Source: Thermoplasmata archaeon (GTDB lineage Archaea; Thermoplasmatota; Thermoplasmata; Lutacidiplasmatales; SKW197). Taken from it: 64,000 nt of DNA. The notes beneath the pieces are model-generated. The model saw nothing but the letters and a program-made list of their open reading frames with translations. It did no database searches and was not told the origin of the DNA. The position numbers and the translations under genes are program-made. This document shows, one piece after another, positions 40,549 to 63,111 of this stretch (position 1 is its first letter; each line of letters starts with the position of its first letter). The stretch is from positions 18,912 through 82,911 of the forward strand of contig JBMFNP010000001.1 in the NCBI GenBank assembly GCA_049970095.1, read 5' to 3'.

Positions 40549-40678
40549 GGGAAACCCTAACTTTGGTTTCTAATAATCTCAGCCAGGAAACCGAGAGCCT
40601 GCCAGATAGTAATGGTAAGACCTAAGTCCAAAATTTTGAATTTTCAAACAAAACTTATGTTTCTCGGTGCTGGCAAGG
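40549..40678 (+). repeat. copy A of a ~135-bp element, inverted relative to copy B at 62974..63111; contains palindrome TTTGAATTTTCAAA (40635..40648)
   Basis: gggaaaccctaactttggtt…tctaataatctcagccaggaaaccgagagcctgccagatagtaatggtaagacctaagtccaaaattttgaattttcaaacaaaactt… is nearly identical to the reverse complement of 62974..63111. Differences are one 12-nt indel plus about 3 substitutions. Confidence 0.85.
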
Positions 40679-40949
40679 GGGTTTCTGGGAATTGCCAGGC
40701 ATATGACAGCGTGGGTGGGAACTACTGGTATTACGGTACAGGTACAGCAAAGGAAGGAAACTACTGGAGCAACTGGGATGGGAGTGGGTGGGGCACATCA
40801 AGTGCATATCCAATAGATGGGGTGCAGGTGCAAGCGATTACTATCCGCTATCAGATCCAGTAGTAAGCGAATTTTCTGGGATAACCGCAATTGCATTTTG
40901 CATTGGAATCCTAATGATTGCGATGGCACGAAAACGGAAAAAGAGGTAA
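40657..40949 (+). pseudogene. 3' remnant of a NosD-like right-handed beta-helix surface-protein gene with archaeosortase-type (PEF/PGF-like) C-terminal anchor; disrupted by a -1 frameshift near 40833 and lacking its 5' part
   Basis: Frame 1 reads …GNYWYYGTGTAKEGNYWSNWDGSGWGTSSAYPIDGVQVQ, the NosD-family C-terminal NYWS-NYDG-DGIGD-PY-I signature. The -1 frame continues SDYYPLSDPVVSEFSGITAIAFCIGILMIAMARKRKKR* (D-YPL motif, TM helix, Arg/Lys tail). The called ORF 40612..40863 starts inside repeat A. Confidence 0.55.
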
Positions 40950-41077
40950 AACAGATTTTATTTTTTCATTTTTGTTTTTTGGGGTTAATGTTTTATTCCA
41001 TAACTTCAATATATGAGCGCTATTTTCTGTTTGGGGATGGGAGAATTGTTAAATATTGGATATAGTTAAAACATCGT

Positions 41078-42259
41078 ATGCGAAAAGATAGATTGGTGCT
41101 CGGGCTCTCAATGAATATTATCCTGCTTGGAATTGTGAGTTTTCTCACTGACATGAGTACTGAGATGATTGTGCCCCTACTTCCATTTTTTCTGGTAGGG
41201 CTTGGGGCAACATACTGGTTAATTGGAGTGATCGAGGGTGTGGCAGAGAGCATTAGCAGTTTTCTTAAACTTGCGTTTGGAATTTACTCGGATAAGCTCA
41301 GAAAAAAGAAGGCATTTGTTATTTCTGGCTATTCAATAAGCAATCTTGTAAAACCCCTTCTTGCCCTTGCAACCTCACCCATGCATGTGCTTGCCATCAA
41401 GGTGACTGACCGTATAGGAAAAGGAATAAGAACAACACCTAGAGATGCCCTCATTGCAGATGCATCCAAGGCGCAAGATAGAGGAAAGGCGTTTGGGCTG
41501 CACAGGGCACTTGATACCAGCGGTGCAGTAGTGGGTCCACTCATCGCCCTGATTGTGCTTATTGCCTTCGGGTGTGCTGGTACTCTCAATAACATAGGTA
41601 TCTACCGTGTGATTTTTGCGATTTCCGCAATACCAGGCATTGCTGCAATCCTTGTGCTTTCTTTTGTGAAAGAAAGTAAAAAAATTACAAGAAAAAAATA
41701 CACTCTCTCGCTCTCAAAGTTTCCGAAAAATTTCAGAATTTTTGTGGTTGGCGTGGGAATATTCTCACTTGGAAATTTTAGCATTGCATTTTTCCTTCTG
41801 CGCTCGGAGCAAATACTCTCCATCGGGATCTGTGGAGATGTGGCACTCTATGTATTTATGAACCTCACATATGCCCTTTTATCCTTTCCATTTGGATTGG
41901 TTGCTGACAGAATTGGAAGAAAAAATATTCTGCTATCTGGCTTCATGATATTTTCTATAGTGATGCTTCTGTTTGCATTTGCAAATTCTCTGGCTGTTAT
42001 CATTCTCGGTTTTCTGCTCTTTGGAGTTTTCATGGCAATGACAGATGGAGTGATAAGGGCAATGGGTTCCGTGATGGTCCCACAGGATGTGTGTGGCTCT
42101 GCGCTTGGCATCATTAACCTCATTACAAGTATCACCATCTTCCCTGCGAATTTCATTGCAGGCATTCTCTGGGATGCGTTCGGCTCATGCTTTGCGTTCC
42201 TGCTTAGTGCTTCTCTTGGAATTATTGCCTCGCTCCTTATCGGGCTTTTTGTGCGGTGA
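41078..42259 (+). CDS. MFS transporter
   Basis: 393 aa, 12 predicted TM helices, MFS loop motif (…ATSPMHVLAIKVTDRIGKGIRTTPRDALIAD…). Confidence 0.8.
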   Translation: MRKDRLVLGLSMNIILLGIVSFLTDMSTEMIVPLLPFFLVGLGATYWLIGVIEGVAESISSFLKLAFGIYSDKLRKKKAFVISGYSISNLVKPLLALATSPMHVLAIKVTDRIGKGIRTTPRDALIADASKAQDRGKAFGLHRALDTSGAVVGPLIALIVLIAFGCAGTLNNIGIYRVIFAISAIPGIAAILVLSFVKESKKITRKKYTLSLSKFPKNFRIFVVGVGIFSLGNFSIAFFLLRSEQILSIGICGDVALYVFMNLTYALLSFPFGLVADRIGRKNILLSGFMIFSIVMLLFAFANSLAVIILGFLLFGVFMAMTDGVIRAMGSVMVPQDVCGSALGIINLITSITIFPANFIAGILWDAFGSCFAFLLSASLGIIASLLIGLFVR

Positions 42260-45200
42260 TTTTTGCTCTCTTCTAACACGCTGCAATCTTCCTGGCGCCC
42301 ACCAGTTCCATTTCTTCAGCAAAATCATCATTGAAGGCACAAGATAGATTCTCATTATTGCGGTATCTATTAGAATTCCTGCACAGAGTGCAAATCCGAA
42401 CTGGCGGAGCATTCCCATTCCAGAAATCATCATACTTCCCAGCGCCCCTGCCATAATCAATCCACAGATTGTGATTATACCACCTGTTTTTTCCACGGCA
42501 GTAACAATTGCCTCCTCATCACTCTTACCTTTAGAAACTTCTTCACGAATTCTGGTTGTAAGAAGAATATCATAGTCAAGTCCGAGACCCACGAGCACCA
42601 CAAATAGAATCAGGGGCATGAGCCAGAGCAAGGGCTGTGCAAGAATAATTGAAAATACAAACATTGTGAGGGCAAGTGTCCAGGTAGCGGTCATAAGGGT
42701 GACACCTAGCAATCTGAGGGGAATGATTACTGAACCAAGAACAACTAACAGCACAATATATGCACCCACAAGGACAATCATGACCATGTAAGGAAAGTCT
42801 TTATCCATAACCAATTTTATATCTTGCATACCTGCAGTGCTTCCTGTGAAATAAAATTCTGCGCTTCTGAAACTCTGATAGTTGCCTTTTTCTCTATTCA
42901 CAAGCTCCCTAATTTCATTTATCTTTTTGATTGCGTTTGCGTGGAATGGTTGTTCCTCAAGTACCACAGAAATCAGCAGTGTTTTTGAATTGTTGCCTAT
43001 GTTGGTGTCTATGACTGGTTTATAGAAGGAAAGCGTGTCTGGGTGTGTGTAATTAATGGGCTCTCCAAATGGACGGGTAATGCTGTAAACTTTTGTAATG
43101 CCTCCCAGTTGCTGAATTTTTGCGCAAAGGATCTCAGTGTCATTAAATACTGGCATATTGTATGTGTCCCCAAGTTTCACTGGTTCTGTTAAATTAATCA
43201 CAATATATGTGGGCATGATGTTCCCCTTACCAAAACCTGTGCCCATTGCATCCATTCCTTTTTTGCTTTCTACATCTGGCATCGTTGAAACAAAGTCGTA
43301 GCCTGTTTCAAGTGTGAGAGTGGCATAGACAGCTGGAATTGTTATCAGAAATGCCACAAGCGTTATTGCCTTTGCATGCTTGAGCGAAAATCTAGCAGCA
43401 TACCAGAAATAACTCTTTTTTATGGCACCTCCGAGTTCCAGTTTAACCTTTGATGGCCAGAAAACTCTATCCCCTACTAAAAGAATGATGGATGGGAGTA
43501 AAGTAAGTGCAGCCAGTAAGCCTATTCCAATTCCCACGAATACAATTCCACCTATTGTCTGCACGAGCGGCAGGGAACTTATCGTAAGCGCACCAAACGA
43601 GATCATCACAGTCACCCCACTTGTGGCGATACTTTCGCCAGCCCAGGTAATTGCAGTTCTTACAGACACTTCTTTCGAATGTCCCTTTCGCCTTTCTTCA
43701 CGGTACCTTGAAAGAATGAAAATTGTGTAGTCAGTGCCTGCACCCAGTAACACTGTGAACAGGAATGTGGGTACAATGTAGTAAATCCGAATAAAGAAGG
43801 TTCCAATAATGAAGATAATTGCATCGGCAATGAGAATAACTATACCCACAGCACCCAGTGGAATAAACGGTGCTACTAGTGAAAGGAAGTATATCGCCAT
43901 GAAAAGTATTGCAAACCCAATGGCAAATGAGTCAATATGGGAAACCTCGCCCCATGATGCCTTTGCAATATCATGGGAGAGGGGTACATCTCCTGTGAGG
44001 TAAATGGTGTAGTTGTAATCCTTATTCAAATTTGCAGCAATTTCTCTCAGCACAATCACATTATTGCTCACACTCTCATTTCTTGAATCTTTCAGGAAGG
44101 TAAGTGAGATGATAATTGTTTTGTTATCAGGGCTGATGAATTTGTGAATAATTGCAGGATGAATCTCTATTGGCAGGTTCCATACTCCACATGCTTCAAT
44201 TGTTTCTCTCACAATTGCTCGCAAAATGGATTCATTGTTCGCAGACACAATCCTCTCAATGTATCTATCATCTTTGAGTGGCGTGTGATTTGCTAGATAA
44301 CTGCAACTGAACTTTCTGTACTCAGTGGTGTTCCCATAATTTCTTAAATTGAACCAGTTTGCAAGTTCAAGCATAAATTTCTGTTCCTCTCCTGTGAAAA
44401 CCCTGGTTATGTGTGGAATTAAAAAGCTATCAAGCACCAACTGAGTGCGGTTAGATGTGTCATTGTATGCTGTTGCGTTCAGGTGTGTCCAGTTCTCATA
44501 GAAACTGGTAAGGTATGCAATTGTGGTATTCAGCATTTCCGGGGGTGTGCTCTGCACAACAATTTCATGCATGTAGTCATATGTAAATTTATCAATTACT
44601 GTTCGGTTGTTCCATGTGAACAGATTGAATGCGGTGGAAACATTTTCAAAGAATTCTCTAGTAGTGTTATCTGTGATGTTAGTGATGAATGAGGGTATTG
44701 TGTGATTGAGTGTGTTGAGGAGGCGTTCATATGCATTTCCAGTTGTGTGGTTCCATACATTGAAATACACTCCTGCATACTGTAGAAACATCTCTGTTGC
44801 TCCAGCAGTTGCAATCTCCATGAAAAGCTTGTATGAAAATTGGTCTATTGCTGTGGTGTTTGCATAACTGCTTCTATACCCTGTATCCTGATAATCAAAG
44901 GTTTCATTCAGTTTTGTTAGAAAATCAATGGGAGTTATATTCACATCTGGATATAGCGGTGTGGTTATATTTGCAAATTCCTCAGCCAGCACCACCTGGG
45001 ATGTATTCCCAGCATTCATTGCAGTTTCCTCAAGTGTGGAATAACTGCCAAGCATAATTGACCAATTTTCTGCGAATGCCATTATGTAATGATTTACTGG
45101 CTCAAGAAGCGCCTGCGGAATTTCTTTCGCAAACATCCCTATGTTTTCAAGAATAAGGTTTGTTGTAAAGTTGTTCAGCATTGGTGTGTTGTTCCCTTCA

Positions 45201-46225
45201 ACTATGAGTGGGGGCATGCAAAGATACCATGTATGTACATTCCAGAATTGCATGATCTTCTGGAAAAATTCTTTTTCATCAGTGGTATTGAATGTTAGAT
45301 TTACCCAGTCGTTCAGGGCATTTTGCTCTATAGCTTTCTGGGCTCTGTCTAGTGAAACATTCATATCTTCGCTTGTATTGTGTTCCGCAGCTGAAGCATT
45401 CCAATAACCTGCAAAGAGATTGTAATATGTGTGGAGCATTTCCGTCTCATTTTTACTGAGACCATACTGTGCTGCAACTCCATCAATGTTAGAGGAAATA
45501 AAAGAATATGTGCGGTTATCTTTCTCTTCCACGGTTGATCCAGGTGTCATGTTCCATTCATACACATGCGCTTTGGGAATTGAATATACAAGAGTTGCAG
45601 AGAAGTTTGTGTAATTCCAGAGTTGAGCATATTGCAATGGCATGCCATACAAAAGAAATGCAGATTGTTCTGAGATATTCCAGAGCATCACATAATTTGA
45701 GGGAAAACCGTACAGCATAAACCCTATGGATTGCGCATTACTGGCGGTTGTGTTGAAGTTATCGGGTATTCCGTAAATGAAATTTGCACTTGCATTTACA
45801 TTTGCTTCTAAGGGGGGATAGGCACTCCATACTTCTTCTGAAGATGTGTACAGAATATCTTCTGTAAGTGTGTATACAGATGTTATCTTGTCAAGAAGTG
45901 CAATATTTTCAGATTTCTTAATTCTTTCTGTGAGATTTTCAACAAAATGCTTCGTTTCCTGTGAAGAAACATTATGGTTCTGAATAACAAATACTGCAGA
46001 ACCGTTTGGTACATTACCTGGAAATTCTTTTTGAATAATTCTGTCTGCAACCTTTGACTCAAGGTTCTCTGGAGTAATTTTTGACTCTTCATAGACCAGC
46101 ACATCCCCGTATTTGAGTGCAAAGGGTACTGCTATCAACAGAAAAATTGCCCAGACCACCACTATTTTTTTGTAATTCTTTGACACTTTATTTGCAAGTT
46201 TTCCAAACATGTTTTGGCATATCAA
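42185..46225 (-). CDS. MMPL/RND-superfamily membrane transporter with large glycosylated extracytoplasmic domains
   Basis: 1346 aa. Two TM bundles, each ending in the SSD/MMPL signature (…LLGAGTDYTIFILSRYREE… and …LVGLGLDYDILLTTRIREE…). Asn-rich NxS/T ectodomain. Its 3' end overlaps the MFS gene by 75 nt (convergent). Confidence 0.8.
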   Translation of the reverse strand: MICQNMFGKLANKVSKNYKKIVVVWAIFLLIAVPFALKYGDVLVYEESKITPENLESKVADRIIQKEFPGNVPNGSAVFVIQNHNVSSQETKHFVENLTERIKKSENIALLDKITSVYTLTEDILYTSSEEVWSAYPPLEANVNASANFIYGIPDNFNTTASNAQSIGFMLYGFPSNYVMLWNISEQSAFLLYGMPLQYAQLWNYTNFSATLVYSIPKAHVYEWNMTPGSTVEEKDNRTYSFISSNIDGVAAQYGLSKNETEMLHTYYNLFAGYWNASAAEHNTSEDMNVSLDRAQKAIEQNALNDWVNLTFNTTDEKEFFQKIMQFWNVHTWYLCMPPLIVEGNNTPMLNNFTTNLILENIGMFAKEIPQALLEPVNHYIMAFAENWSIMLGSYSTLEETAMNAGNTSQVVLAEEFANITTPLYPDVNITPIDFLTKLNETFDYQDTGYRSSYANTTAIDQFSYKLFMEIATAGATEMFLQYAGVYFNVWNHTTGNAYERLLNTLNHTIPSFITNITDNTTREFFENVSTAFNLFTWNNRTVIDKFTYDYMHEIVVQSTPPEMLNTTIAYLTSFYENWTHLNATAYNDTSNRTQLVLDSFLIPHITRVFTGEEQKFMLELANWFNLRNYGNTTEYRKFSCSYLANHTPLKDDRYIERIVSANNESILRAIVRETIEACGVWNLPIEIHPAIIHKFISPDNKTIIISLTFLKDSRNESVSNNVIVLREIAANLNKDYNYTIYLTGDVPLSHDIAKASWGEVSHIDSFAIGFAILFMAIYFLSLVAPFIPLGAVGIVILIADAIIFIIGTFFIRIYYIVPTFLFTVLLGAGTDYTIFILSRYREERRKGHSKEVSVRTAITWAGESIATSGVTVMISFGALTISSLPLVQTIGGIVFVGIGIGLLAALTLLPSIILLVGDRVFWPSKVKLELGGAIKKSYFWYAARFSLKHAKAITLVAFLITIPAVYATLTLETGYDFVSTMPDVESKKGMDAMGTGFGKGNIMPTYIVINLTEPVKLGDTYNMPVFNDTEILCAKIQQLGGITKVYSITRPFGEPINYTHPDTLSFYKPVIDTNIGNNSKTLLISVVLEEQPFHANAIKKINEIRELVNREKGNYQSFRSAEFYFTGSTAGMQDIKLVMDKDFPYMVMIVLVGAYIVLLVVLGSVIIPLRLLGVTLMTATWTLALTMFVFSIILAQPLLWLMPLILFVVLVGLGLDYDILLTTRIREEVSKGKSDEEAIVTAVEKTGGIITICGLIMAGALGSMMISGMGMLRQFGFALCAGILIDTAIMRIYLVPSMMILLKKWNWWAPGRLQRVRREQKSPHKKPDKERGNNSKRSTKQERKA

Positions 46226-46304
46226 AAGGACTTTAAATTATTTTCTATTCATCCCTGGTGGATGAGCAAAATCATGATATAAAAGGAGAAAACTAAAAAT
46301 GTTA

Positions 46305-48449
46305 TCAAAATGTTTTTCTATCTGTGGCTATCGGTGAGAAGATGATGCCGGGTGGAGAAGAATGAGAATTGTAATGCTGGAGGAATTCATCCCACTGGGT
46401 TTGGTTTGTGAACACCCCTGATGAAGAATATTCCCCAAGCCAGCTTGCATCCCCATCAGGGAAGAATATACTTATGCCGTGGCAGAAGCTCACGGTCGGT
46501 GTTGCCCTGTAAACCATCACTGTAGAAGAAACTTGGCTCATCACATTTGCTGCTGCACTCTTCAAACTGCTGGAATTTGCATACTTCTGGATGTTCTCTG
46601 CAAACTGGTAGAGGTCAACAGTGTTGTAGCCAGTTGAGTCAAGGATACTCCCGCATGCCTTTCTTGCTTTGGAAATATTTTCATAATCTTTCTGTAGTTC
46701 GCTTGTTAGTGCACTTGCGAAGCTGTTAACGGCACTCACAAGCCCTGGCACCGCTGCAGCATTGTATGCGGCAATTGCCTGCGTTGTGTAACAGGCATCA
46801 TCTACAGGTGTAGCTACATTTATGATAGTAGTTGCCAGGGCACTTCCTGAGATGCTTGGGTTGGATACAATTGCTCCTACAATTCTATTCTGGGGGAACG
46901 TGGATGTCCAGCCAATAGTTTCACTTGCAACTATATAATCCACATATGGATACACCTGCGCGAGCACTTCAATTGCACCCATCAAACAGTCATCAAAATA
47001 GAGCACATCCACATTATGCCCGATGAGTTGCTTCAATGCCTCAACCCCATTAGCAATTTCTGTAAGGTCAAGGTTGTCCCCTCCGTTCGTATCATCCCAG
47101 CAACAACCAAGCCATGACCCACCATGGTCCTCCGGGTTCACCAGATAGTGGTCTGCCTGGAATCTCTGGGCACCCCAGATAAGGAAGTAAATCCAGGTAT
47201 ATCTATCTCCCATGTTAACTTCGCCCAAACTCTGTACTGCATTCTGTGGTGTGGGAGAAAGCCCTTTGGTTACAAAGTACCTGTATGCCCCACTGTTCGC
47301 ATGGTCTATCTGGACTGCGATGCTCACATCCCTTGTTGAGCCTATACTTGCAATATCATTGAAATCCTCAACCATGTAATCATCAAGGTTGTTGTCACCA
47401 TCGTAGTACATCAGCACAGTCCATTTCGCTTTCACCACTGTAAAACTCATGGTGACGCCGTTGTTACTCTCCCCAGTGCCGATATAAGTGCCCGTAGCTT
47501 TGTTCGCTTCACTCACAGCATTCGTTGTATCCACTACTACACGCACTGTATGGGTTCCTGGTGTAGATATAAAGAGAGAGGAAGAAGAGAAGGAGAAAGA
47601 GGCACCCACTGAAAGGCTAGAGGTTGTTTTTGTTCCATAGAGGGTCCCATCTACATAGATTTTGGTGTAAAATGTGGTTGATGCACTGTTATCTCCAGCG
47701 TTCTTTATTTTCGTGTAAACCTTGAACGGCTGTCCAGATGTTATGGTTGTAGTTGTGCTCCCATATGTGTCCACAATCCAGGTACTTTCCACCACAAGGT
47801 CTGGTGCTTTGAACCATACCAGGGTGGATTTTATGTTGTCGTTTTCATTGCTTTCTGGTACACTGTTTGTGGAATCGGCAATTACCATCACATTATGATA
47901 TCCAGGTCCAAGTCTGTTTGTGGTCTTATACACCGTTGTGGAAGTTTCTGGTTCAAGAACATCCACCCAGACAGTTCCAAGAGAGATATTCGTATTCCCG
48001 TATTTGCTCTTGAATTCCACTGAGAAACCTGATGCGGCAACTTCTCCGTAGTTAGTAAGGGTGGCAGTAATTGTAATTGTCTGGTAGGCAGTAGGTGTTG
48101 AGGGCGAGACGGAAATACTTTTTACTACAATATTTGCCGCTCCCCCTGCGGCGTTGATTTCTGGGGGTGTATATTCAGATACCACCTCAGGTAGATTCTC
48201 TACACTCATTTCAAAAGCAGATTCGCCAATCAATTCTGGCGATCCGATGGTCCCTTCCGAGAATTCTTTCAATAGAACTGGATTTTGTTTCACTTCCTTT
48301 TTACTGACATCTGTCCTTATTCCCTTCTCCGAGTTATTCATTCCTGACACTGAAACCGTGAAAACACCAGCTACTAGTACTACCAAGAGCATAGCACATA
48401 TCATTTTTTTAGATTTTTTAGAGTTGAACATTTTATCACCTCCTTTCAC
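46305..48449 (-). CDS. secreted CARDB-domain protein with C-terminal clostripain-like (peptidase C11) cysteine-protease domain
   Basis: Signal peptide, then CARDB-like repeats (…YQTITITATLTNYGEVAASGFSVEFKS…). C11 signatures WTVLMYYDGDNNLDDYM, EDHGGSWLG (catalytic His) and LYFDDCLMGAIEVLAQ (catalytic Cys). Confidence 0.75.
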   Translation of the reverse strand: MKGGDKMFNSKKSKKMICAMLLVVLVAGVFTVSVSGMNNSEKGIRTDVSKKEVKQNPVLLKEFSEGTIGSPELIGESAFEMSVENLPEVVSEYTPPEINAAGGAANIVVKSISVSPSTPTAYQTITITATLTNYGEVAASGFSVEFKSKYGNTNISLGTVWVDVLEPETSTTVYKTTNRLGPGYHNVMVIADSTNSVPESNENDNIKSTLVWFKAPDLVVESTWIVDTYGSTTTTITSGQPFKVYTKIKNAGDNSASTTFYTKIYVDGTLYGTKTTSSLSVGASFSFSSSSLFISTPGTHTVRVVVDTTNAVSEANKATGTYIGTGESNNGVTMSFTVVKAKWTVLMYYDGDNNLDDYMVEDFNDIASIGSTRDVSIAVQIDHANSGAYRYFVTKGLSPTPQNAVQSLGEVNMGDRYTWIYFLIWGAQRFQADHYLVNPEDHGGSWLGCCWDDTNGGDNLDLTEIANGVEALKQLIGHNVDVLYFDDCLMGAIEVLAQVYPYVDYIVASETIGWTSTFPQNRIVGAIVSNPSISGSALATTIINVATPVDDACYTTQAIAAYNAAAVPGLVSAVNSFASALTSELQKDYENISKARKACGSILDSTGYNTVDLYQFAENIQKYANSSSLKSAAANVMSQVSSTVMVYRATPTVSFCHGISIFFPDGDASWLGEYSSSGVFTNQTQWDEFLQHYNSHSSPPGIIFSPIATDRKTF

Positions 48450-48542
48450 TATGTAATATGTGGGTGTGAGTATATATATTTGTTGGGGTAACTACCACAA
48501 CTTTACCATGTAGGTAAAATTGCTATTGTGAAGTGCAAGAAT

Positions 48543-48572
48543 ACCACCACACTACCACCACACTACCACCAT
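48543..48572. repeat. tandem 11-nt repeat (ACCACCACACT x ~2.7) in divergent promoter between C11-peptidase gene and pilin-like operon
   Basis: ataccaccacactaccaccacactaccaccat. A related actaccacaac lies ~50 nt upstream. The TATA-like tttatatata follows. Confidence 0.7.
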
Positions 48573-48606
48573 ATGTTTATATATACGCTTGCAGATATAG
48601 ATTAGT

Positions 48607-48614
48607 GAGGAGGT
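48607..48614 (+). promoter_or_regulatory. Shine-Dalgarno GAGGAGGT 3 nt upstream of ATG 48618
   Basis: gaggaggtaccATG. Confidence 0.7.
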
Positions 48615-48617
48615 ACC

Positions 48618-49121: not shown

Positions 49122-49122
49122 G
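49115..49122 (+). promoter_or_regulatory. Shine-Dalgarno GGAGGTGA 3 nt upstream of TTG start 49126
   Basis: ctggaggtgagaaTTGaacagaaag. Confidence 0.6.
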
Positions 49123-49125
49123 AAT

Positions 49126-49644: not shown

Positions 49645-49652
49645 GGAGGTGA
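49645..49652 (+). promoter_or_regulatory. Shine-Dalgarno GGAGGTGA 5 nt upstream of ATG 49658
   Basis: ttaaggaggtgagaaaaATGaataaagg. Confidence 0.65.
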
Positions 49653-49657
49653 GAAAA

Positions 49658-53872: not shown

Positions 53873-53974
53873 GGCACAATCAACTGGGTTTCTGTCAGGG
53901 CTGCAGGATATTACTTTGCGTTTGCAAAAGCCACGGAAGGTGTAAGTTATGTAGACCCAACTTTCAGTACAAAT

Positions 53975-54457: not shown

Positions 54458-54621
54458 TTTTCTCTAATTTTTTTGTTGCTTCTAACAAAGATTTTAAAAA
54501 TGTGCTGGTACCTGTATCAAGCACTGCGTTTGAGGGCAAGCATCTACCTAATGAGAGAATTGAGAAGGTATATCAAAAACTTTATTACACCCTTCTGATA
54601 TACCGCTCGCTGGTGAAATCT

Positions 54622-55950: not shown

Positions 55951-56723
55951 CACAACCAGTGATTGAGGTTGAACATCTTTCGGTAAGGAGGGGTAACACG
56001 ATTGTTGTAAGTGATGCAACATTCACAATCAACAGAGGAGATTATGTTGGAATTGTGGGACCGAATGGAGGGGGTAAAACAACACTTGTGGAGGCAATTC
56101 TGGGACTGCTACCCAAAGAAAGTGGGAAAATAACAATTTTAGGAAAGCCTGTTGAAGAGTTTGACATGTGGGAAAAGGTGGGTTATGTCCCACAGCATGC
56201 GATTAATTTTGACACAATGTTTCCGCTCACTGTAAAAGAACTTGTTGCTCTGGGGAGAATCGGGAGATGGAACCTCGGAAAGAAACTGAATCCTGAGGAC
56301 TGGAAAGAAATCAAGGAGGCGATGGAATTTCTTGAAATCGCCCACCTTGCAGAGAGACGGGTTGGGAAATTGTCTGGTGGGCAGATGCAGCGGGTGTTTA
56401 TTGCCCGTGCCATTACCAGAAAACCAGAAATTCTGATTCTTGATGAGCCCGTGGCAGGTATTGACCCAAGTTTGCAAGAAAGATTCTACAAACTTCTGAG
56501 CAATCTAAATCTGAAAAAAAGGACAACAATTGTTGTGGTTTCCCATGACCTATCAGTGGTATTCTGCAGGATGTCCAAAGTAATCTGCGTCAACAGAAAA
56601 ACCTATACATGCGAGGTAAATGAAACTACAGAACCCGAGAAAATATTGAGAGAGGTATATGGAGAACACTTCCATTTTGTATTTCACAAACATGAGTGCA
56701 GGGGGATTTTTGGAAATGAGTGA
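55947..56723 (+). CDS. znuC: metal ABC transporter ATP-binding protein (ZnuC-like), TTG start with SD GGAGGT
   Basis: Walker A GPNGGGKTT, ABC signature LSGGQMQRV, Walker B ILILDEP. Translationally coupled to znuA (stop/start overlap). Confidence 0.85.
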   Translation: MTQPVIEVEHLSVRRGNTIVVSDATFTINRGDYVGIVGPNGGGKTTLVEAILGLLPKESGKITILGKPVEEFDMWEKVGYVPQHAINFDTMFPLTVKELVALGRIGRWNLGKKLNPEDWKEIKEAMEFLEIAHLAERRVGKLSGGQMQRVFIARAITRKPEILILDEPVAGIDPSLQERFYKLLSNLNLKKRTTIVVVSHDLSVVFCRMSKVICVNRKTYTCEVNETTEPEKILREVYGEHFHFVFHKHECRGIFGNE

Positions 56724-57540
56724 ACTCTCATTTTTTGACATTGTTACCCTTTTCACCTACCAGTTCTTCAGGTATGCTATCATAGGTGGAATCCTTGTGG
56801 CTGTCGCATGTGCCCTAATTGGCATATTCGTTGTTCTGAGAAAACAATCAATGCTTGGAGATGGCCTTGCCCATGCCTCTTTTGGCGGAATCGCACTTGG
56901 GCTATTTATTGGGGTTCTCCCACTGATTACCGCACTCCTTGTTTCCATCATAGCAGTGCTATCCATATCATATCTGAAAAGGCATGGAATTGCACCTTCA
57001 GATGCCTCCATTGCAGTTTTTCTGGCACTGGGATTTGCAACAGGGCTGGTGCTTATAAGTTTATCTGGCGGATTTAATGTTGACCTGTTCGCCTACTTAT
57101 TCGGTTCAATTCTGACAATTGATGCCGGGGATCTGTTTCTAATCCTTATCCTCAGTGGTGTGATCATCGTGTTTATTGCAGTATTTTACAAAGAACTGGT
57201 TGCAATATGCTTTGACGAACAATATGCAAAACTCTCTGGGATTCCAGTCAATGTGCTAAACATTGTATTTGACATTCTTGTGGCAAGCACTATTGTAATT
57301 TCAATAAAAATTGTAGGTGTAATTCTAGTTTCTGCAATGATTGTTATCCCTGCACTTTCTGCCCTCCAACTGAATTTATCTTTCAAAAAAACAATAATTT
57401 CAAGTGTGGCATTTGCAATCACCAGTGTTGTAATAGGTATCATGCTCTCTGCCATTTACGGCGTGGCTACCAGTGGTGTAATTGTATTTACTGCAGGCGC
57501 AATATTTCTTATTACTGCAATTTACAAAAAACTGGAGTGA
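56716..57540 (+). CDS. znuB: metal ABC transporter permease (ZnuB-like)
   Basis: Start MSELSFFDIVTLF… overlaps the znuC stop by 8 nt. Polytopic membrane protein with a typical ZnuB/TroCD profile. Confidence 0.8.
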   Translation: MSELSFFDIVTLFTYQFFRYAIIGGILVAVACALIGIFVVLRKQSMLGDGLAHASFGGIALGLFIGVLPLITALLVSIIAVLSISYLKRHGIAPSDASIAVFLALGFATGLVLISLSGGFNVDLFAYLFGSILTIDAGDLFLILILSGVIIVFIAVFYKELVAICFDEQYAKLSGIPVNVLNIVFDILVASTIVISIKIVGVILVSAMIVIPALSALQLNLSFKKTIISSVAFAITSVVIGIMLSAIYGVATSGVIVFTAGAIFLITAIYKKLE

Positions 57541-57557
57541 AAATAGAGCATGCAAAC

Positions 57558-58082
57558 TTACAACCTCTTATCCCCTTCTCTTATGATTGCACTGATACCT
57601 GTGGGATCTTCAATTACAACCGTCAGTTTTTCGGTGCCTGCAATAATTCGCTCTATTCTTTCTTTAATATCATAATATTTTGCCAGTTCCTTTCCACTGA
57701 GCGAGGGTCTTATATTCTCCAGCACATCCTCAAATCTTCTCAGAATACCCTCCACATTTGAGATATATGTTTCGGATTCAGGACCTGGCACAATTTCAAC
57801 ACCAAGTTCCTTGAATATAATCTTAGCCTTTGAGGATTTTACCACTCTCGCATCTAAGTCTTCTGGTTTCTCAATTACAAATTCAATTTTCACTGCACCT
57901 CTATTCTCCACAGGGCTCACATCTGAGGACTTATACCCGCAATCTTTACAAATAATTGTGCTCTGGATACATGTGCCCACATATGGAATGTCTAGCAATG
58001 TGGTATGCATTGAAACCTTTTTTTTCCCACACGAGGGACAGGGAATATCCACAAATACACCGAAATCACACCCTTCAGTCAT
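57558..58082 (-). CDS. ZPR1-type zinc-finger domain protein
   Basis: 174 aa. CPSCGKKK…(26 aa)…CKDCGYKS zinc ribbon followed by a beta domain, as in archaeal ZPR1 homologues. Confidence 0.55.
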   Translation of the reverse strand: MTEGCDFGVFVDIPCPSCGKKKVSMHTTLLDIPYVGTCIQSTIICKDCGYKSSDVSPVENRGAVKIEFVIEKPEDLDARVVKSSKAKIIFKELGVEIVPGPESETYISNVEGILRRFEDVLENIRPSLSGKELAKYYDIKERIERIIAGTEKLTVVIEDPTGISAIIREGDKRL

Positions 58083-58551
58083 CCTCTCCCTTTGATAATG
58101 CCTTGAGAATATCTCCTCTTGTCACTATTCCCAGAATTTTATGGTCTCTCACAATTGGAATACGATTTACTTTGTGCTTTACCATGAGCTGAATTACCTG
58201 CCCAAGATCGTCATCTGGTGAGGCTGTGATTACATCCCTCGTCATAATTTCTTCCACTTTTGTGTTCACAAGTTCATCATACACCTCCCTTGCTTTCCTT
58301 TCTTTCGGAATTTCTACAAATCCGACGCTAATAAGTGGGAGGCTGGGAAACACAAGGTGTAATTCCCTGAATTCTGTGCGTAATTTTTCAAATATATCCG
58401 CCTCGGAAATTATTCCAAGAAGGTTTCCGTCTTTATCAGTAACTGGTGCGCCACTTATATTGTGCTTTGCAAGAATATCCACTGCCTCTTTTATGTTAGC
58501 ATTTATAGGGATGGTAATTACCTTCTTTCGCATGCATTTTGAGACTTTCAT
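58075..58551 (-). CDS. CBS-domain pair protein
   Basis: Two CBS motifs (…ISGAPVTDKDGNLLGIISEADIF… and …VNRIPIVRDHKILGIVTRGDILKAL). Start chosen at the internal Met MKVSKCMRKK; the track ORF extends to 58689. Confidence 0.7.
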   Translation of the reverse strand: MKVSKCMRKKVITIPINANIKEAVDILAKHNISGAPVTDKDGNLLGIISEADIFEKLRTEFRELHLVFPSLPLISVGFVEIPKERKAREVYDELVNTKVEEIMTRDVITASPDDDLGQVIQLMVKHKVNRIPIVRDHKILGIVTRGDILKALSKGEDD

Positions 58552-58666
58552 GGTGGAACTTATTGCACACGGGTATATGTGTGTTTCTACGGTTGGGGAT
58601 GTAGAAATTTGTTTTGGTGCCACCATAGAAAAAAATATGTGAGAGTTCTTATATATCCCAGTTGGT

Positions 58667-59413
58667 GTGAGTATGAATAAAGAACGCATAGTAATCGGAT
58701 GCTGTGGATTGCCTGTTGCCCTTGAAAAATATGCAGGGATGCTTAATGCTGTGGAGACCCAGCAGACCTTCTACCAGTTAATCCCAGAAAAAACAGCTCA
58801 GACCTGGAGGGAAAAAGCAGATAAAGTAAAATCCGGGTTTGAGTTTACAGTGAAAGCACATCAGTTCATTACACATAACCCTAATGGAAGTACCTATCTT
58901 CGTGCAGGAATTAAAATTCCTGAGGAAAAGAAACAAAATTACGGATTTTTCAAGCAAACAGAAGAAGTTTTCAGTGCATGGGAACACACTGTAAAGATTG
59001 CCACGATACTGAGGGCTAAAGCCATTTTGATCCAGTCCCCACCTCAATTCAGTGAAAAACCTGACAATGTGACAAACCTGAAGAGTTTTTTTGAAAGAGC
59101 AAAGGATTCTAACTTTTTGTTATTTTGGGAACCGCGAGGAAAATGGAAGGATGAAACCGTGAAAGAAATCTGTGCACAATATGGGGTATATCACTGTGTT
59201 GACCCCACAAGAAGAAGGCCAGTGACGGAAAAGTTCTTTTATTTCAGATTGCACGGGGGTGCGAGATACAGGGGTTCATATAGCCTGCATCAACTATCAG
59301 ATCTTGCATTAATGTTGAGGGCACTGGATGGAGAACTTGCATTTGTGTTCTTCAATAATGAATACATGCTGGCTGATGCACAGAAGTTCGTAAAAATTAT
59401 AGAAGAAATTTGA
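58667..59413 (+). CDS. DUF72 (UPF0759) family protein
   Basis: 248 aa. N-terminal IVIGCCGLPVALEKYAGMLNAVETQQTFYQ resembles the DUF72 signature (IGTSGWSY…FYP). Confidence 0.6.
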   Translation: MSMNKERIVIGCCGLPVALEKYAGMLNAVETQQTFYQLIPEKTAQTWREKADKVKSGFEFTVKAHQFITHNPNGSTYLRAGIKIPEEKKQNYGFFKQTEEVFSAWEHTVKIATILRAKAILIQSPPQFSEKPDNVTNLKSFFERAKDSNFLLFWEPRGKWKDETVKEICAQYGVYHCVDPTRRRPVTEKFFYFRLHGGARYRGSYSLHQLSDLALMLRALDGELAFVFFNNEYMLADAQKFVKIIEEI

Positions 59414-59418
59414 TACAC

Positions 59419-60279
59419 TCACATTTTTCCAGCACGCTGGAGAATTATTAACTCCTCTGTGGTAATCTTTTTACCACTCAGAAACTTCTGGTAGATCTCT
59501 TCTGCCTGCTTATCACTGTCAGATTTTGCTTCTCTTCTGGTTTTCTGCCTCAGTGCATGCACCATTTTTTCAAGGTCATGGATTTCTCTTATTTTTTCCA
59601 GATGCTTTCTGTGTGCCTCATCTGCTTCAAGTTTTGCCTTCACAAATTTTTCTTGGGCTTCATCAGCCTGTCTTCTGATGTCATCAGCCTTTGAATAGAG
59701 TTCTACCATCTTTTCATGTTCAGACTGGGCTATCTCAGCATACTCATTTACCAGCTTATGATGACGCTCTGCTTCCTCCTTTGCCTGTTCATACTCCCGC
59801 ACAAGTGCCTTTATTTCTGGATCTTCTTCAATTTCCTTTTCTCTCTTTTTTATCTCTGCCTGGATTCTTGCAATTGATTTTATGAGTTCCTCTTCCTTCT
59901 CTCTAGATAGCACTGAAGTCATCTGTTTGAACTCCAGCTCTTTAAGTTCCTTTCGCAATTTGGCAATGGAATCACCATTCTTCGGAATCTTCTTTCGTTT
60001 TGCATATCGGATTTTATCTGCCAGCTCAAATGTCTTTTTATTCCACTTCTCCCTCTCCATCTTCTCTTCCTTTACCTTGTTATTATATTCTTCCCGCTTC
60101 TTTTTGTGCTCATTTGCAGCATCTGCTAGTTTCTTTGCTTCATTGTTTAACCTGTCTCGCTCTTCTACCCATTTCCTGGCTTCATCATTTAACCTATCTC
60201 TTTCTATCCTGTATTTTTCTGCTTCTGCATTTAGATTCTGAATCTTTTTTTCCAATTCGTGAAGCACTTCATCGGGCAT
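59419..60279 (-). CDS. archaeal coiled-coil protein (Lys/Glu-rich, COG1340-like)
   Basis: 286 aa of almost uninterrupted heptad-like K/E/R-rich sequence. Real, since it sits downstream of the STAND gene on the same strand; the antisense ORF 60000..60788 is low-complexity. Confidence 0.6.
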   Translation of the reverse strand: MPDEVLHELEKKIQNLNAEAEKYRIERDRLNDEARKWVEERDRLNNEAKKLADAANEHKKKREEYNNKVKEEKMEREKWNKKTFELADKIRYAKRKKIPKNGDSIAKLRKELKELEFKQMTSVLSREKEEELIKSIARIQAEIKKREKEIEEDPEIKALVREYEQAKEEAERHHKLVNEYAEIAQSEHEKMVELYSKADDIRRQADEAQEKFVKAKLEADEAHRKHLEKIREIHDLEKMVHALRQKTRREAKSDSDKQAEEIYQKFLSGKKITTEELIILQRAGKM

Positions 60280-60336
60280 ATGTGTTCCTCTTTAGAAGTG
60301 TAAAGCACCTATACTTTCACTTATTTATAATTGTTT

Positions 60337-62937
60337 CTATCTGCACTCTGCACTCAAACTTCCTCCAAATTTTTTCACTATTTCTGCCATTGCTTCCTCA
60401 ACCTCACTCTCAATACCGATTTTTGCAGCAACTTTCCGTGCCTCCTCTATTGCCTCCATGTATTTTTCCTTATCTCCCTTCTCTGCGTAAAGTTCTGCAA
60501 TGTCTATCTGGTTGTATACAAACATCCACTTATTTCCTGTCTTATTACACAGATGCTTTGCCTCCAGATACTCTGCCAGCGCCTTTTCAAACTCATTATT
60601 TTCAAAATATACATTCCCAAGATTGTTCTTTGAGATTGCCATACCATCCAGGTCGTGAATTCTTTTCTTCAGTTCGATACTCTTCTCAAGGATTTCCCTT
60701 GCATTTTCAAAATCCTCAAGTTCATAATACACCATTCCAAGATTGTTGTAAACAAGTGAAAGTCCATAGTAATCCTTTTTCCTCATGAAAATCTCCTCGC
60801 TTTTCCTCAGATAATCCATGCTTTCAGAATATCTCCCTTCATAGTAAAGAATCGCCCCAATACGGTTATAGGCACGGGCAATTTCAACATCCATATTGTA
60901 CTTCTCAAACACCCCAATTGCTTTCTTCTGAGCCTCAATTGCTTCGGCATATCTTCCACATCTTTCATGAATATAACCCTCAGTTGCCAGTGCTTTACCC
61001 ATCTCCAGATTTTTCTCGTCCTCCGGCAGTTTTTCAAATTCTTCAAATGCAACATTTATCCTTTCAAGTGCTGCAGCATGTTCCCCCATTTTTAGCAGTA
61101 CCTCTGCAAGTGCAAGATAACCCCTTCCCTTCTCCAGTGCATTCTCACCAGCCAGATTAATTTTTTCCTCAATCTTATCAGCTGCCTCAACAAACAGCCC
61201 TGATGATATCAATATTTCCACAATTTTTTCAAGTACATCAAGTGCAATCTTTTTTTCCTGGACATTGCACTTATCCAGCACATCATACAATCTCTGCAAG
61301 ATCTCTATGGCTTCTGTGTATGCAAATCTTTCTGCAAGTTTTTCACCTGCAGCAAACCCGTACTCTTTCAACTTGTCTATTCGCCCAGCTTTCAGATAAT
61401 GATACACCATAACCAGCATTTTATCAGCATCACCTTTTTGATATTCCTCCTCAAAAATTTTACCTGCAATCTCATGAAGTGCCGTTCTCAATTCCTCTCC
61501 TAACTCATTGTAGACTACTTCGCGGATTCTTGAGGGCTCAAATTTATAAGTGTTCTTTTCATGCCTTAACAACCCATAAGCCTTCTCAATTTTTGATAAA
61601 ATCCGCAGAACAGTTACCCTGTCCATTCCAAGCATTTTTTCCAGAACATTCGCAGTGAATTCATTACCTAGAACACTAGCGCTCTCAAGAATTTCAATCT
61701 CCTCCTCATTTAGCCTGGTGAGCTTCTCCTTTATGATTTCGTAAACTCTCTCTGGCACTTTTATCTCTTTTTTGTCGTATAACCAGACGTTTCCTTCTTT
61801 TCTTAGGAATTCTTTGTCGCTCAGATACTTCAAAACCTCAATAATAAACAGAGGATTTCCTTCCGTCTCCGCATAGATTGTGTCTTTAAATTCCTGATTT
61901 ATATAACCCTCTAGCACACTTTCAATCAATTGACATACACCTTCTTTATCCAGTGGTTCAAGCGTCAAAATATCCAGCAACTCTTCCCCTCTCATGGCAT
62001 TGATCAATTCAGAAAGGGATTGCCCTCCTGCTGCCTTGATCTCATCACTTCTTACTGTTCCAAAAATTCCGATGCGCTCACTCTGGATGTCTCTCGCAAT
62101 ATAATGCAGAAGTGAGAGAGTAGAGGAGTCTGCCCACTGAAGGTCATCCATTATAATTACAACTGGCTTCTCCCGTGAAATCCTTTTGATTCCAAGAAGT
62201 ACATTCTGGAATACACCAATTTTTCTTGTGGAACTGTCTATTCCAAGCATACTTCCATCATATTTCTCGCTTTCTACAAGGGCTTTCAGATAGTGCTGAA
62301 GGATATCATTCTCTTTATCATTGTCATTGCCTACCTCTTCAACTTTTGACAGAATCGCTTTCATATCCTCTATCAGATACTCGTTCTCAATCCCATCAAC
62401 AAGGGCTACAAGGTTTATTTTTTTTCCAGGGAGATTTATGATTGTGAAATCCCCATGTCTCATCACTCCAAGTTTTCCTTCTTCAACTTCATCTGCTCTC
62501 CCAGAAATTTGGTTCATAGAATCCTTTATAAAATTTTCCACGGCAGTTACCATACCCAGAAATATATCGGAATCAATATTCTGGTTTTTTCTTTCATACT
62601 TCGCTAAAATTATTCCTCCCTTATTTACAGCATACAAAGCATCCAGAGAGGGGATACTCTCAGCAAGAAGATATTCCTTGTTTATTTCTTTCAACATCTC
62701 ATAAATAGGAGTGAATGGTGCCATCCCAGGTACACATTTTCCAGACATCACATTAACTCCTCTGCTCTCACAGATTTTTCGGAGTTCTTCCAGAAGCCGT
62801 GTTTTTCCAACACCACCCTCCCCGAGCAAGAACACGGTTCTTCCCCTGCCCTTTCCTACATCATCAACAAAATGCTCACAGAATTTGAGCTCTTTTCTCC
62901 TGTCAACAAACTCGGGTGGCAACTTCAGGATGCTCAT
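60337..62937 (-). CDS. STAND-class NTPase (AAA_16-type) with ~150-aa domain inserted between Walker A and Walker B and C-terminal TPR-repeat array
   Basis: Walker A LLGEGGVGKTRLL near the N-terminus. Walker B VVIIMDDLQWAD. Insert …GDFTIINLPGKKINLVALVDGIENEYLIEDMKAILSKVEE…. At least 8 TPR-like repeats (…AYNRIGAILYYEGRYSESMDYLRKS…). Confidence 0.8.
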   Translation of the reverse strand: MSILKLPPEFVDRRKELKFCEHFVDDVGKGRGRTVFLLGEGGVGKTRLLEELRKICESRGVNVMSGKCVPGMAPFTPIYEMLKEINKEYLLAESIPSLDALYAVNKGGIILAKYERKNQNIDSDIFLGMVTAVENFIKDSMNQISGRADEVEEGKLGVMRHGDFTIINLPGKKINLVALVDGIENEYLIEDMKAILSKVEEVGNDNDKENDILQHYLKALVESEKYDGSMLGIDSSTRKIGVFQNVLLGIKRISREKPVVIIMDDLQWADSSTLSLLHYIARDIQSERIGIFGTVRSDEIKAAGGQSLSELINAMRGEELLDILTLEPLDKEGVCQLIESVLEGYINQEFKDTIYAETEGNPLFIIEVLKYLSDKEFLRKEGNVWLYDKKEIKVPERVYEIIKEKLTRLNEEEIEILESASVLGNEFTANVLEKMLGMDRVTVLRILSKIEKAYGLLRHEKNTYKFEPSRIREVVYNELGEELRTALHEIAGKIFEEEYQKGDADKMLVMVYHYLKAGRIDKLKEYGFAAGEKLAERFAYTEAIEILQRLYDVLDKCNVQEKKIALDVLEKIVEILISSGLFVEAADKIEEKINLAGENALEKGRGYLALAEVLLKMGEHAAALERINVAFEEFEKLPEDEKNLEMGKALATEGYIHERCGRYAEAIEAQKKAIGVFEKYNMDVEIARAYNRIGAILYYEGRYSESMDYLRKSEEIFMRKKDYYGLSLVYNNLGMVYYELEDFENAREILEKSIELKKRIHDLDGMAISKNNLGNVYFENNEFEKALAEYLEAKHLCNKTGNKWMFVYNQIDIAELYAEKGDKEKYMEAIEEARKVAAKIGIESEVEEAMAEIVKKFGGSLSAECR

Positions 62938-62973
62938 TGCTGCATGTAATTACACCTGAGTATTAATTTCTTT

Positions 62974-63111
62974 CTGAGAACCGAGGAACACAAGTTTTGT
63001 TTGAAAATTCAAAATTTTTGGACTTAGGTCTTACCATTACTATCTGGCAGGCTCTCGGTTTCCTGGCTGAGATTATTAGATAAATCTCATCAACCAAAGT
63101 TAAGGTTTCCC
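62974..63111 (-). repeat. copy B of the ~135-bp element (inverted relative to copy A), in divergent promoter region between STAND ATPase and DUF2156 genes; palindrome TTTGAAAATTCAAA at 63000..63013
   Basis: Its reverse complement is cacacagggaaaccttaactttggtt[gatgagatttat]ctaataatctcagccaggaaaccgagagcctgccagatagtaatggtaagacctaagtccaaaaattttgaattttcaaacaaaacttgtgttcctcggttctcag. An AAATTAATA TATA-like box lies ~30 nt before ATG 62937. Confidence 0.85.

Follow-up and report, generated by a model that had tools for sequence, protein, structure and literature searches.

An inverted repeat pair in a Thermoplasmata chromosome as a possible scar of old rearrangement

Introduction

In the 64-kb window analyzed here, that is, the whole stretch of Thermoplasmata DNA under study, one short non-coding sequence occurs twice, in opposite orientation and with ~22 kb between the copies. 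Does such a pair delimit a mobile island, duplicate a promoter, serve as a recombination substrate, or record a past event? Short prokaryotic repeats of such size and identity are usually mobile elements, which weighs against the reading that we nevertheless find best, namely that the pair marks old rearrangement junctions in ordinary chromosomal DNA and neither the border of a mobile island nor a shared promoter.

Two near-identical intergenic copies in inverted orientation

The two copies, A and B, and the segments by which they are compared lie as follows.

40549..40671, + strand: copy A of the repeat (123 nt), flanked by the PGI stop codon at 40490 on one side and a NosD-like remnant on the other
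62977..63111, - strand: copy B of the repeat (135 nt), in the intergenic region that separates the divergent STAND ATPase (-) and DUF2156 (+) genes
40569..40629, + strand: exact 61-nt core in copy A, the reverse complement of 63020-63080
63020..63080, - strand: exact 61-nt core in copy B
63081..63091, - strand: B-specific 11-nt segment GATGAGATTTA, missing from A

Alignment of copy A with the reverse complement of copy B gives 119 identical bases out of 123 aligned (96.7%), so that the near-identical inverted pair of the preliminary description, with ~97% identity over ~130 nt, is real. The copies differ by four substitutions, a 1-nt indel in an A-run and an 11-nt indel; the latter is the B-only indel previously given as 12 nt, the length of which turned on an ambiguous T. 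The core occurs twice in the window compared with an expectation of 0 from 100 shuffles, and the divergence between the copies (3.3% plus indels) is several times that seen at strain level, which makes the underlying event old and blurs its mechanism.

Neither copy is coding, as every reading frame of the element is interrupted by stop codons or copy-specific frameshifts, and the sequences beyond the repeat ends show no significant similarity between A and B. A marginal upstream extension of the homology, including TGAGTGGG (p about 0.01-0.09), was not accepted. The element has no terminal inverted repeats (TIRs), its ends, GGGAAACC... and ...CTCGGTNCT, not being complementary, and the sole GAAACCC/GGGTTTC match lies in the NosD-derived flank of A and is missing at B. 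There is no target-site duplication (TSD) at either copy (flanks GAGT/GGCA at A and CACA/CAGA at B) and no direct repeat around the whole 22.5-kb unit, and inspection by eye revealed no inverted TSDs across both copies of the pattern expected from intramolecular replicative transposition.

Copy A adjoins a truncated surface-protein gene

40666..40949, + strand: 3' end left over from a gene for a NosD/right-handed beta-helix surface protein, with the last ~50-aa module, a frameshift and a C-terminal membrane anchor

The NosD homology starts exactly at position 40666, at the conserved GAGKGV, and the 5' part of the gene, amounting to at least 540 aa, is gone; the frameshift near 40821-40824 is present too in the short-read contig L022. 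This confirms that copy A abuts a gene remnant deprived of its 5' part. The accompanying claim that A is oriented toward an adjacent gene start fails, since the remnant has no start codon, and the next one, that of the MFS gene, lies 406 nt from copy A across the pseudogene. The first 6 nt of the remnant (40666-40671, codons G-A of GAGKGV) fall inside the A/B similarity, where A reads GGTGCT and B reads GGTTCT, identical at 5/6 positions with a chance of about 0.005-0.02. This overlap with NosD codons looks like a microhomology join, which predicts it, whereas transposase-mediated insertion would not. An overlap of 6 nt could also be chance.

We tentatively propose that A and B go back to an inverted duplication within the local intergenic DNA, which illegitimate recombination either created or cut back. 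A non-coding intergenic stretch of ~125-135 bp would have been copied locally in inverted orientation, the direction being from B, which sits in the intact divergent DUF2156/STAND intergenic region, to A; copy A would have been deposited, or afterwards trimmed, by illegitimate, microhomology-type recombination, and the same rearrangement would have deleted the 5' part of the NosD-like gene (at least 540 codons) beside PGI. If the recombination that made or trimmed A also cut the NosD-like gene, the pair would be a rearrangement scar in an often-reshuffled region of the chromosome. We infer the joining by microhomology and the lack of function, and likewise where the left junction lies and which way the sequence was copied. 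The missing 5' part of the NosD-like gene is not found at the other breakpoint, so that a simple single inversion would leave something unexplained.

Resemblance to mobile repeats and search for further copies

The main rival to local duplication is a decayed, non-autonomous mobile repeat without TIRs, of the PATE/IS200-IS605-like or another TIR-less family and multicopy elsewhere in the genome, in which case the deletion that shortened the NosD-like gene would have been brought about by copy A or a lost neighboring copy. We consider this unlikely, though a serious contender in view of the sharp ends of the copies and their about 97% identity in otherwise unrelated intergenic settings, the cut of the NosD-like gene exactly at the element, and the palindromic hairpins near both ends, which follow roughly the IS605 geometry (PMC3119063), the first hairpin lying 23 nt from the 5' end of the reverse strand and the last 1-2 nt from its 3' end. 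PATEs, the palindrome-associated transposable elements that derive from IS200/IS605-type transposons in haloarchaea (Haloquadratum walsbyi, PMC3119063), are likewise archaeal and non-coding, measure about 50-300 bp and have copies that are >90% identical (PMC3119063); as in A and B, there is no TIR and no target duplication, hairpin-forming palindromes lie near the ends, and the element is too short for a transposase. However, PATEs come in tens to hundreds of copies with strain-specific insertions, their end palindromes match a resident IS605-type element, and they adjoin a conserved 4-6-nt target (PMC3119063). None of this is seen for our pair: A and B share no flanking target oligonucleotide on either strand, and their near-terminal palindromes are unlike each other, the 3' TTTGAA/TTCAAA being unrelated to the 5' hairpin GGAAACC/GGTTTC (itself weaker in B), whereas those of homogeneous PATEs are similar (PMC3119063).

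Multiplicity is equally wanting in the data searched, as just two copies were found in the 64-kb window and another 3.8 kb of conspecific sequence. A and B were combined into a covariance model, which was run on the window and on 22 related or conspecific loci; across the window and ~400 kb of related Thermoplasmata loci it returned just A, B and the counterpart of B in contig L028, with no homologue in related species. Exact scans gave 0 matches for one 22-mer in the GTDB species representatives, for two 22-mers in the JGI metagenomes, and for a 24-mer and a 25-mer in IMG/VR, and blastn of the element in 'distant' mode matched no plasmid or phage. A 293-aa query, joined from the open stretches in six frames of both copies and meant to catch spurious ORFs on other copies, had no match at E<=10 among 5.8 billion proteins, and exact look-up of an 83-aa chimeric ORF found nothing on record. 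The lack of TIRs and TSDs, and of any transposase or TnpB in the 64 kb, further argues against a mobile repeat.

Two other repeat classes invite comparison. TIR-type MITEs (such as those that are Tc1/mariner/IS630-derived and TA-targeting) resemble the pair in size, intergenic site and lack of coding capacity, but A and B have no TIRs, no duplication of TA or any other target, and no single long hairpin; a MITE of this type, or its parent, is instead the element that is polymorphic among conspecific MAGs at 13 bp from copy B. Of the earlier suggestion that the copies are MITE or solo-IS ends, the truncation of the NosD-like gene at A stands, while a TIR, a TSD, an empty site and, in the data searched, a further copy are all lacking. 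Enterobacterial ERIC/REP-type repeats are high-copy and conserved across genera; the present element shares with them a length of about 125 bp, a structured intergenic character and occurrence in either orientation, but differs in having two known copies in one species.

Both copies are fixed among conspecific assemblies

60337..62937, - strand: gene for a STAND-type ATPase (AAA_16 + TPR), with copy B upstream of it
62964..62965, strand not applicable: TA dinucleotide, the empty target site in the window of a TIR-bearing insertion in two conspecific MAGs

Among conspecific contigs, L001 carries the 5' part of copy A (100% identical) and L022 its 3' part; copy B is found whole and identical in L028 (GCA_049699375.1) and by its 3' part in L023. 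In all covering conspecific contigs (L001, L022, L023 and L028) both copies occupy the same sites and carry the same copy-specific variants, and no empty site or insertion polymorphism for A or B exists among the four conspecific assemblies that cover the sites, contrary to what a mobile repeat would suggest. Two conspecific MAGs do carry a TIR-bearing transposon between B and STAND, polymorphic and 13 bp from B. Active transposition in the population, evidenced by this TA insertion, is in keeping with a mobile repeat, as are the short-read contigs of other MAGs, which end or start within the 61-nt core of the element; the fixed state of A and B at the same conspecific sites, unlike that of the neighboring transposon, counts for a rearrangement scar.

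The inverted orientation and the 61-bp exact core could also point to a switch, in which A and B recombine, homologously or site-specifically, so as to flip 22.3 kb in part of the population and swap the contexts of STAND and of the NosD remnant/MFS. Indeed, the orientation of DUF7121-DUF72 relative to the PAPS-reductase gene (12045-13952) is opposite to that in two related species, but the difference spans 45 kb versus 2.4 kb amid many other rearrangements, which leaves it a coin-flip observation. Moreover, L028, the sole contig to run through an entire copy, carries B-type markers to either side of the core and hence has the configuration of the window, no recombinase gene lies nearby, and A and B have become different both before and after the core, where frequent exchange would homogenize them. 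We regard such a switch as very improbable. Inversion by recombination between the copies is physically possible, as the inverted homology, perfect over 61 bp and near-perfect over ~120 bp, could support it occasionally; it would bring the STAND ATPase gene to a position right behind PGI and the MFS/MMPL end beside DUF2156. The present-day activity of the pair is likely only passive, in that the intervening 22.3 kb could now and then be inverted by homologous recombination.

Synteny breaks at copy B in all three related species examined, which favors a rearrangement scar. For a synteny test of the inversion, the nearest other species (PGI 73%, DUF2156 58% and DUF7121 86-88% aa identity, on separate contigs with different neighbors) are too rearranged.

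Palindrome, fold and promoter context

40635..40648, strand not applicable: palindrome TTTGAA-TT-TTCAAA in copy A
63000..63013, strand not applicable: the same TTTGAA-N2-TTCAAA palindrome in copy B

What might have been duplicated, so that two loci answer a common signal, is a functional module: a small structured RNA, as gene or leader, or an upstream TTTGAA-N2-TTCAAA platform for a dimeric regulator. Each copy faces a downstream gene on the same strand, neither shows strain-level variation, and the 6-2-6 palindrome is perfect in both, as originally reported. Elsewhere in the 64-kb window, other promoters included, the palindrome does not occur, which speaks against a regulatory platform, and with up to 1 mismatch ~1 chance match is expected per window.

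Folding of the element gave z-scores of -1.6 to -3.0 relative to shuffled sequence (-2.3 to -3.0 for the core), and an 83-nt core on the sense strand adopts the same predicted closed multi-hairpin structure in A and B (z -2.7 and -2.35, respectively). This modest excess of folding in the core over shuffled sequence is not predicted by a neutral scar and counts against it. However, with two sequences only, 0/29 predicted pairs vary on both sides, and a T-to-C difference between the copies disrupts one predicted base pair. Rfam 15 yielded no match at gathering score across the whole window and, at E<=10 around copy A, just chance-level miRNA/lncRNA matches (E 1-9), and ARAGORN found no tRNA or tmRNA. 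Scans for bacterial sigma-70 promoters and terminators were empty, which is irrelevant to an archaeon.

The promoter context is equally at odds with a shared module. From copy B it is 39 nt downstream to the start codon of the STAND ATPase, and the TATA-like box AAATTAATA, at about 62962-62970 (about -34 of STAND), lies outside the repeat and exists at B alone. No conserved TATA/BRE is found upstream of or inside the repeat, the flanks of A and B differ, and a separate proximal TATA is present at each of MFS, STAND and DUF2156. Copy A precedes a dead gene fragment, the MFS gene following some 400 nt further on, and in two strains the transposon separates B from STAND. The shared promoter or leader originally envisaged is thus not borne out, and together with the lack of a homologue in related species these data make a functional module rather improbable. 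Less probable still, in our estimation, is the speculation that the pair founds an undescribed TIR-less family of structured mobile or RNA-encoding repeats in one uncultured hot-spring Thermoplasmata lineage and keeps the 22-kb segment invertible.

The enclosed segment resembles ordinary chromosomal DNA

57558..60279, - strand: core cluster ZPR1-CBS-DUF72-DUF7121, conserved and syntenic in related species

Inverted copies around several transporter and secreted-protein genes have the geometry that TIRs would have in a 22.5-kb mobile island, such as a composite transposon or a casposon-like element. Beyond this geometry the data point the other way. GC content is the same in the 22.3-kb block and its flanks (0.39-0.44 throughout), and codon usage inside and outside does not diverge significantly (permutation p=0.20). 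A Pfam scan of all window ORFs of at least 150 aa detected no integrase, transposase, TnpB, IS605-type element, Cas1, PolB or recombinase, the unit has no flanking direct repeat, and PADLOC made no defense-system assignment for the STAND ATPase or the ORFs of unknown function. The block had been described as holding only accessory genes, yet ZPR1-CBS-DUF72-DUF7121, a core cluster whose synteny extends to three related species (54-88% aa identity), lies within it, and the block is present and colinear in conspecific MAGs, as on contig 11 of GCA_049971275.1. The mobile-island reading, and with it the notion of the copies as island boundaries, is effectively refuted.

Discussion

Inverted duplications at the breakpoints of inversions or rearrangements (staggered-break model), and template switching mediated by microhomology or templated patches (FoSTeS/MMBIR), are documented mainly in eukaryotes. 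The scar that we favor resembles them in several respects: exactly two inverted copies, as far as detected here, lie at the ends of a segment, gene order is disrupted at each of them, the one readable junction (40666-40671) shows a few bases of microhomology, and transposase signatures are absent.

If this reading is correct, the pair would represent a small, well-resolved microhomology-type rearrangement with an inverted duplicate in an archaeal chromosome, and it would explain why the short-read MAGs of this species are fragmented at the sites of the two copies. It also cautions that inverted repeats around accessory-looking genes need not mean a mobile island. The element would gain greater weight if it proved multicopy, and thus a new TIR-less archaeal mobile repeat, if transcription of it yielded a new RNA, or if flipping of the 22-kb segment did take place in the population.

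Extent and setting of the inverted pair

Local alignment pairs copy A, on the plus strand, with the reverse complement of copy B, and 119 of the 123 aligned bases are the same, which confirms the near-identical inverted pair of the preliminary description. The copies further differ by an 11-nt segment found only in B (GATGAGATTTA, 63081-63091) and by an A-run that is one A longer in B, and they share an exact 61-nt core (40569-40629, the reverse complement of 63020-63080) with two occurrences in the window versus none in 100 shuffles. The features concerned are as follows.

Copies A and B and their immediate neighbours (TATA positions relative to start codons)
40549-40671, plus strand: copy A, preceded by the stop codon of the phosphoglucose isomerase (PGI) gene at 40490 and followed by a gene fragment and an MFS gene (41078; TATA box TTAAATAT at -32)
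62977-63111, minus strand: copy B, in a 337-nt divergent intergenic region between the STAND and DUF2156 genes
Start codon 62937, minus strand: STAND-type ATPase (AAA_16 + TPR; TATA box AAATTAATA at -34)
Start codon 63275, plus strand: DUF2156/LPG-synthase-C gene (TATA box AAGAATATAA at -33)

A repeat search and blastn (word size 7) found no third copy in the 64-kb window. The 6-2-6 palindrome TTTGAA-N2-TTCAAA is indeed present in each copy and nowhere else in the window; given that about one match per window arises by chance once a single mismatch is allowed, it is unremarkable by itself. No significant similarity continues past the repeat ends, a candidate upstream extension (TGAGTGGG, with a 14-nt indel and CCCCTG-TGCAATT) reaching p of about 0.01-0.09 depending on the scoring scheme. 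Just outside the 5' end of B, an 11-mer stands twice in perfect tandem (63130-63151, ATTTTCTAGTG); the conspecific contig L028 has this duplication as well. The DUF2156 gene is frameshifted in the window at 63800-63806, where an A-run is 1 nt shorter (A7) than the A8 of L028, whose product is an intact 297 aa; the window copy may be a genuine pseudogene, or the assembly may have miscounted the homopolymer.

The block between the copies

The window comes from an uncultured Thermoplasmata archaeon and is unexceptional chromosomal DNA; the closest GTDB representatives show 73% amino acid identity on PGI. Housekeeping genes (Pus10, IPMDH, two aminoacyl-tRNA synthetases, PurD, CoaBC and PGI) flank the block on both sides. 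GC content is 0.39-0.44 over the entire window and codon usage inside and outside the block does not differ (permutation p = 0.20). A Pfam scan of ORFs of at least 150 aa in the block and both flanks returned no integrase, transposase, Cas1 or other recombinase family, and the 22.5-kb unit has no flanking direct repeat. The block had been described as holding accessory genes only; its right part is a conserved cluster, ZPR1-CBS-DUF72-DUF7121 (57558-60279), whose DUF7121-DUF72 pair is kept in three related species (54-88% amino acid identity) and which is syntenic as a whole in one of the three. Furthermore, 40725-59722 is colinear on a single contig of a conspecific MAG at 99.5-99.8% identity. 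With composition like that of the flanks, no mobility genes, a conserved cluster inside and a colinear conspecific, we reject the genomic-island reading, and that A and B mark the ends of an island or composite transposon is scarcely credible.

Elsewhere in the block, three consecutive ORFs upstream of a GH25 muramidase (48618-53872; 167, 172 and 1415 aa) have no Pfam or PADLOC match. Outside it, three tandem units of ~120 nt, 71-73% identical (9165-9469), are an ordinary coding repeat within an Arm/HEAT-repeat protein gene (9064-9708).

Promoters and an insertion beside copy B

TATA boxes of the TTTATATA/ATATATA type stand ~25-45 nt before start codons in this genome, and those of the MFS, DUF2156 and STAND genes all lie outside the repeat (3/3); nothing at A corresponds to the TATA-like box of the preliminary description. 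A start codon follows B after 39 nt, and behind A the next one comes 406 nt further on, past a dead gene fragment. In addition, foreign DNA separates B from the STAND gene in two conspecific MAGs (GCA_049971275.1 and GCA_049699375.1; L003:1-27 and L028:1-52). It is inserted at TA 62964-62965, with B 13 bp away on one side and the STAND start codon 27 bp downstream on the other, which shows that the gene does not require an adjacent B. On these three grounds we discard the proposal of a shared promoter. The ends of the insertion form imperfect inverted repeats (TAGTTCAACGCAAAAC... / ...GCGTCTAACTA; about 21/25 for TAGTTCAACGCAAAACTTTTTATAC... / ...GTATAAAAAATTATGCGTCTAACTA), the TA is duplicated on either side and the window represents the empty site; the insertion resembles a Tc1/mariner/IS630-type element, or the MITE of one, that is active in the population. 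The STAND gene of GCA_049971275.1 is 99.9% identical to that of the window, and the 78 nt after its stop codon (L003:2655-2732, just below window position 60337) are unrelated to the window and match nothing in it, reflecting a second insertion specific to this strain or else another genomic setting of the gene.

Copy A at a truncated NosD-like gene

An 83-aa ORF (40612-40863) begins within A and runs into the NosD remnant, matching from residue 19 onward a ~50-aa module of NosD/right-handed beta-helix proteins of 600-3400 aa; these proteins contain up to several copies of the module, the final one close to the C-terminus. By tblastn, the homology starts at 40666 and the window holds no further NosD-like pieces. 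The remnant is frameshifted near 40821 and continues as a C-terminal membrane anchor to about 40949; the frameshift is real, since it recurs in a short-read contig from a different sample. An identical 83-aa protein is listed in a public protein library (P0012), which shows that annotation pipelines take this chimeric ORF, an artefact, for a gene.

At the module start the family reads ...HHNYFxxNN/GAGKGV and the window ...KLMFL/GAGKGV (slash, join). The A/B similarity closes with six bases that are at once the first two NosD codons kept, GGT GCT (40666-40671; GGTTCT in B). An overlap of 5/6 placed exactly at the join would arise by chance with a probability of about 0.005-0.02. The overlap was therefore probably left by a microhomology-mediated join rather than by a transposase. 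Thus, while its island and promoter readings fall, the preliminary description was right about the truncation at A, which can be refined to a probable microhomology junction.

Copy B at a recurrent synteny breakpoint

Gene order in the nearest other species has changed too much for a 22-kb inversion to be tested. Two of them share the order PAPS reductase (+), DUF835 (-), DUF7121 (+), DUF72 (-), followed in one by CBS (+) and ZPR1 (+), and a third has other genes ahead of DUF7121. In the window, the STAND gene and B occupy the position upstream of DUF7121 where relatives carry other genes, which places B at a recurrent breakpoint; the cluster is oriented oppositely relative to the PAPS gene and lies 45 kb from it, versus 2.4 kb in the relatives. 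Gene content upstream of DUF7121 varies between all the species examined (loci L030, L031-L034 and L035-L039).

The window holds two paralogous PUA + PAPS-reductase + 4Fe-4S genes 22 kb apart (12045-13952 and 34243-36135; patches of 73-79% nucleotide identity, listed as direct repeats D2 and D4), of which only 12045-13952 is the orthologue (70% amino acid identity) of the gene beside DUF7121 in related species. In the 73%-identity relative, isolate SKW197 (L005:6222-13542), a tandem array of three STAND-type ATPase paralogues, encoded on the opposite strand, follows PGI and one further gene, indicating that STAND genes expand near PGI in this lineage.

Origin of the pair

Contigs of four other assemblies of the species cover the A or B sites.

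Conspecific contigs at the copies (window coordinates)
L001 (GCA_049971275.1): 31336 to 40629, stopping where the 61-nt core ends
L022 (ERZ3623746): from 40599 on into the NosD remnant, MFS and MMPL
L023 (GCA_964535255.1): from 63017 through STAND to DUF72
L028 (GCA_049699375.1): the whole of B, same as the window, joined to DUF2156

This coverage indicates that A and B are fixed, each with its own variants. Three contigs end within the element, as a repeat predicts; many others end elsewhere in these low-coverage assemblies, which makes the ends inside it uninformative on copy number beyond two. Of these contigs only L028 runs across a whole copy; its markers are B-type to the left and right of the core, as in the window. 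An actively inverting segment is very improbable.

Exact sub-patterns had no match in GTDB representatives, JGI metagenomes or IMG/VR, plasmids and phages gave no blastn match, and a concatenated six-frame peptide query matched no protein. Searched over ~400 kb of related and conspecific loci, a covariance model of the pair recovered A, B and the B of L028 alone, and Rfam had no match. In A and B alike, the sense strand of an 83-nt core is predicted to form three hairpins around a junction closed by a stem (ACCGAG/CTCGGT) that ends at the 3' boundary of the repeat; fold z-scores are -2.7 and -2.35 (sense) and -1.9 and -2.3 (antisense) for the core, and -3.0 (A) and -1.6 (B) for the whole element. 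Of the four A/B substitutions, one disrupts a predicted pair and another is tolerated as a G-U pair, and the two sequences show no covariation. Such weak support for a structure would fit RNA or single-stranded DNA hairpins alike, and we consider a functional RNA or regulatory module improbable.

A classical MITE is argued against by the absence of TIRs, a TSD, an empty site or a further copy in the sequences searched. Somewhat less doubtful, yet still unlikely, is a decayed TIR-less mobile repeat of the PATE/IS200-IS605 kind (as defined in PMC3119063): the two near-terminal palindromes of the element are unlike each other, no target oligonucleotide is common to both copies and an IS605-type partner is absent from the window. 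Local duplication without a transposase fits better than a dispersed family, because the junction overlaps NosD codons and both known copies lie within 22 kb, at rearrangement junctions. We therefore lean, tentatively, towards a two-copy inverted duplication, which would have been made or trimmed by illegitimate recombination. The feature is thus real, with a mostly ordinary explanation: A lies at a truncation scar and B at a recurrent break in synteny, no single event being reconstructable. Whatever the origin of the pair, its 61 bp of perfect inverted homology could on rare occasions let the segment invert by homologous recombination.
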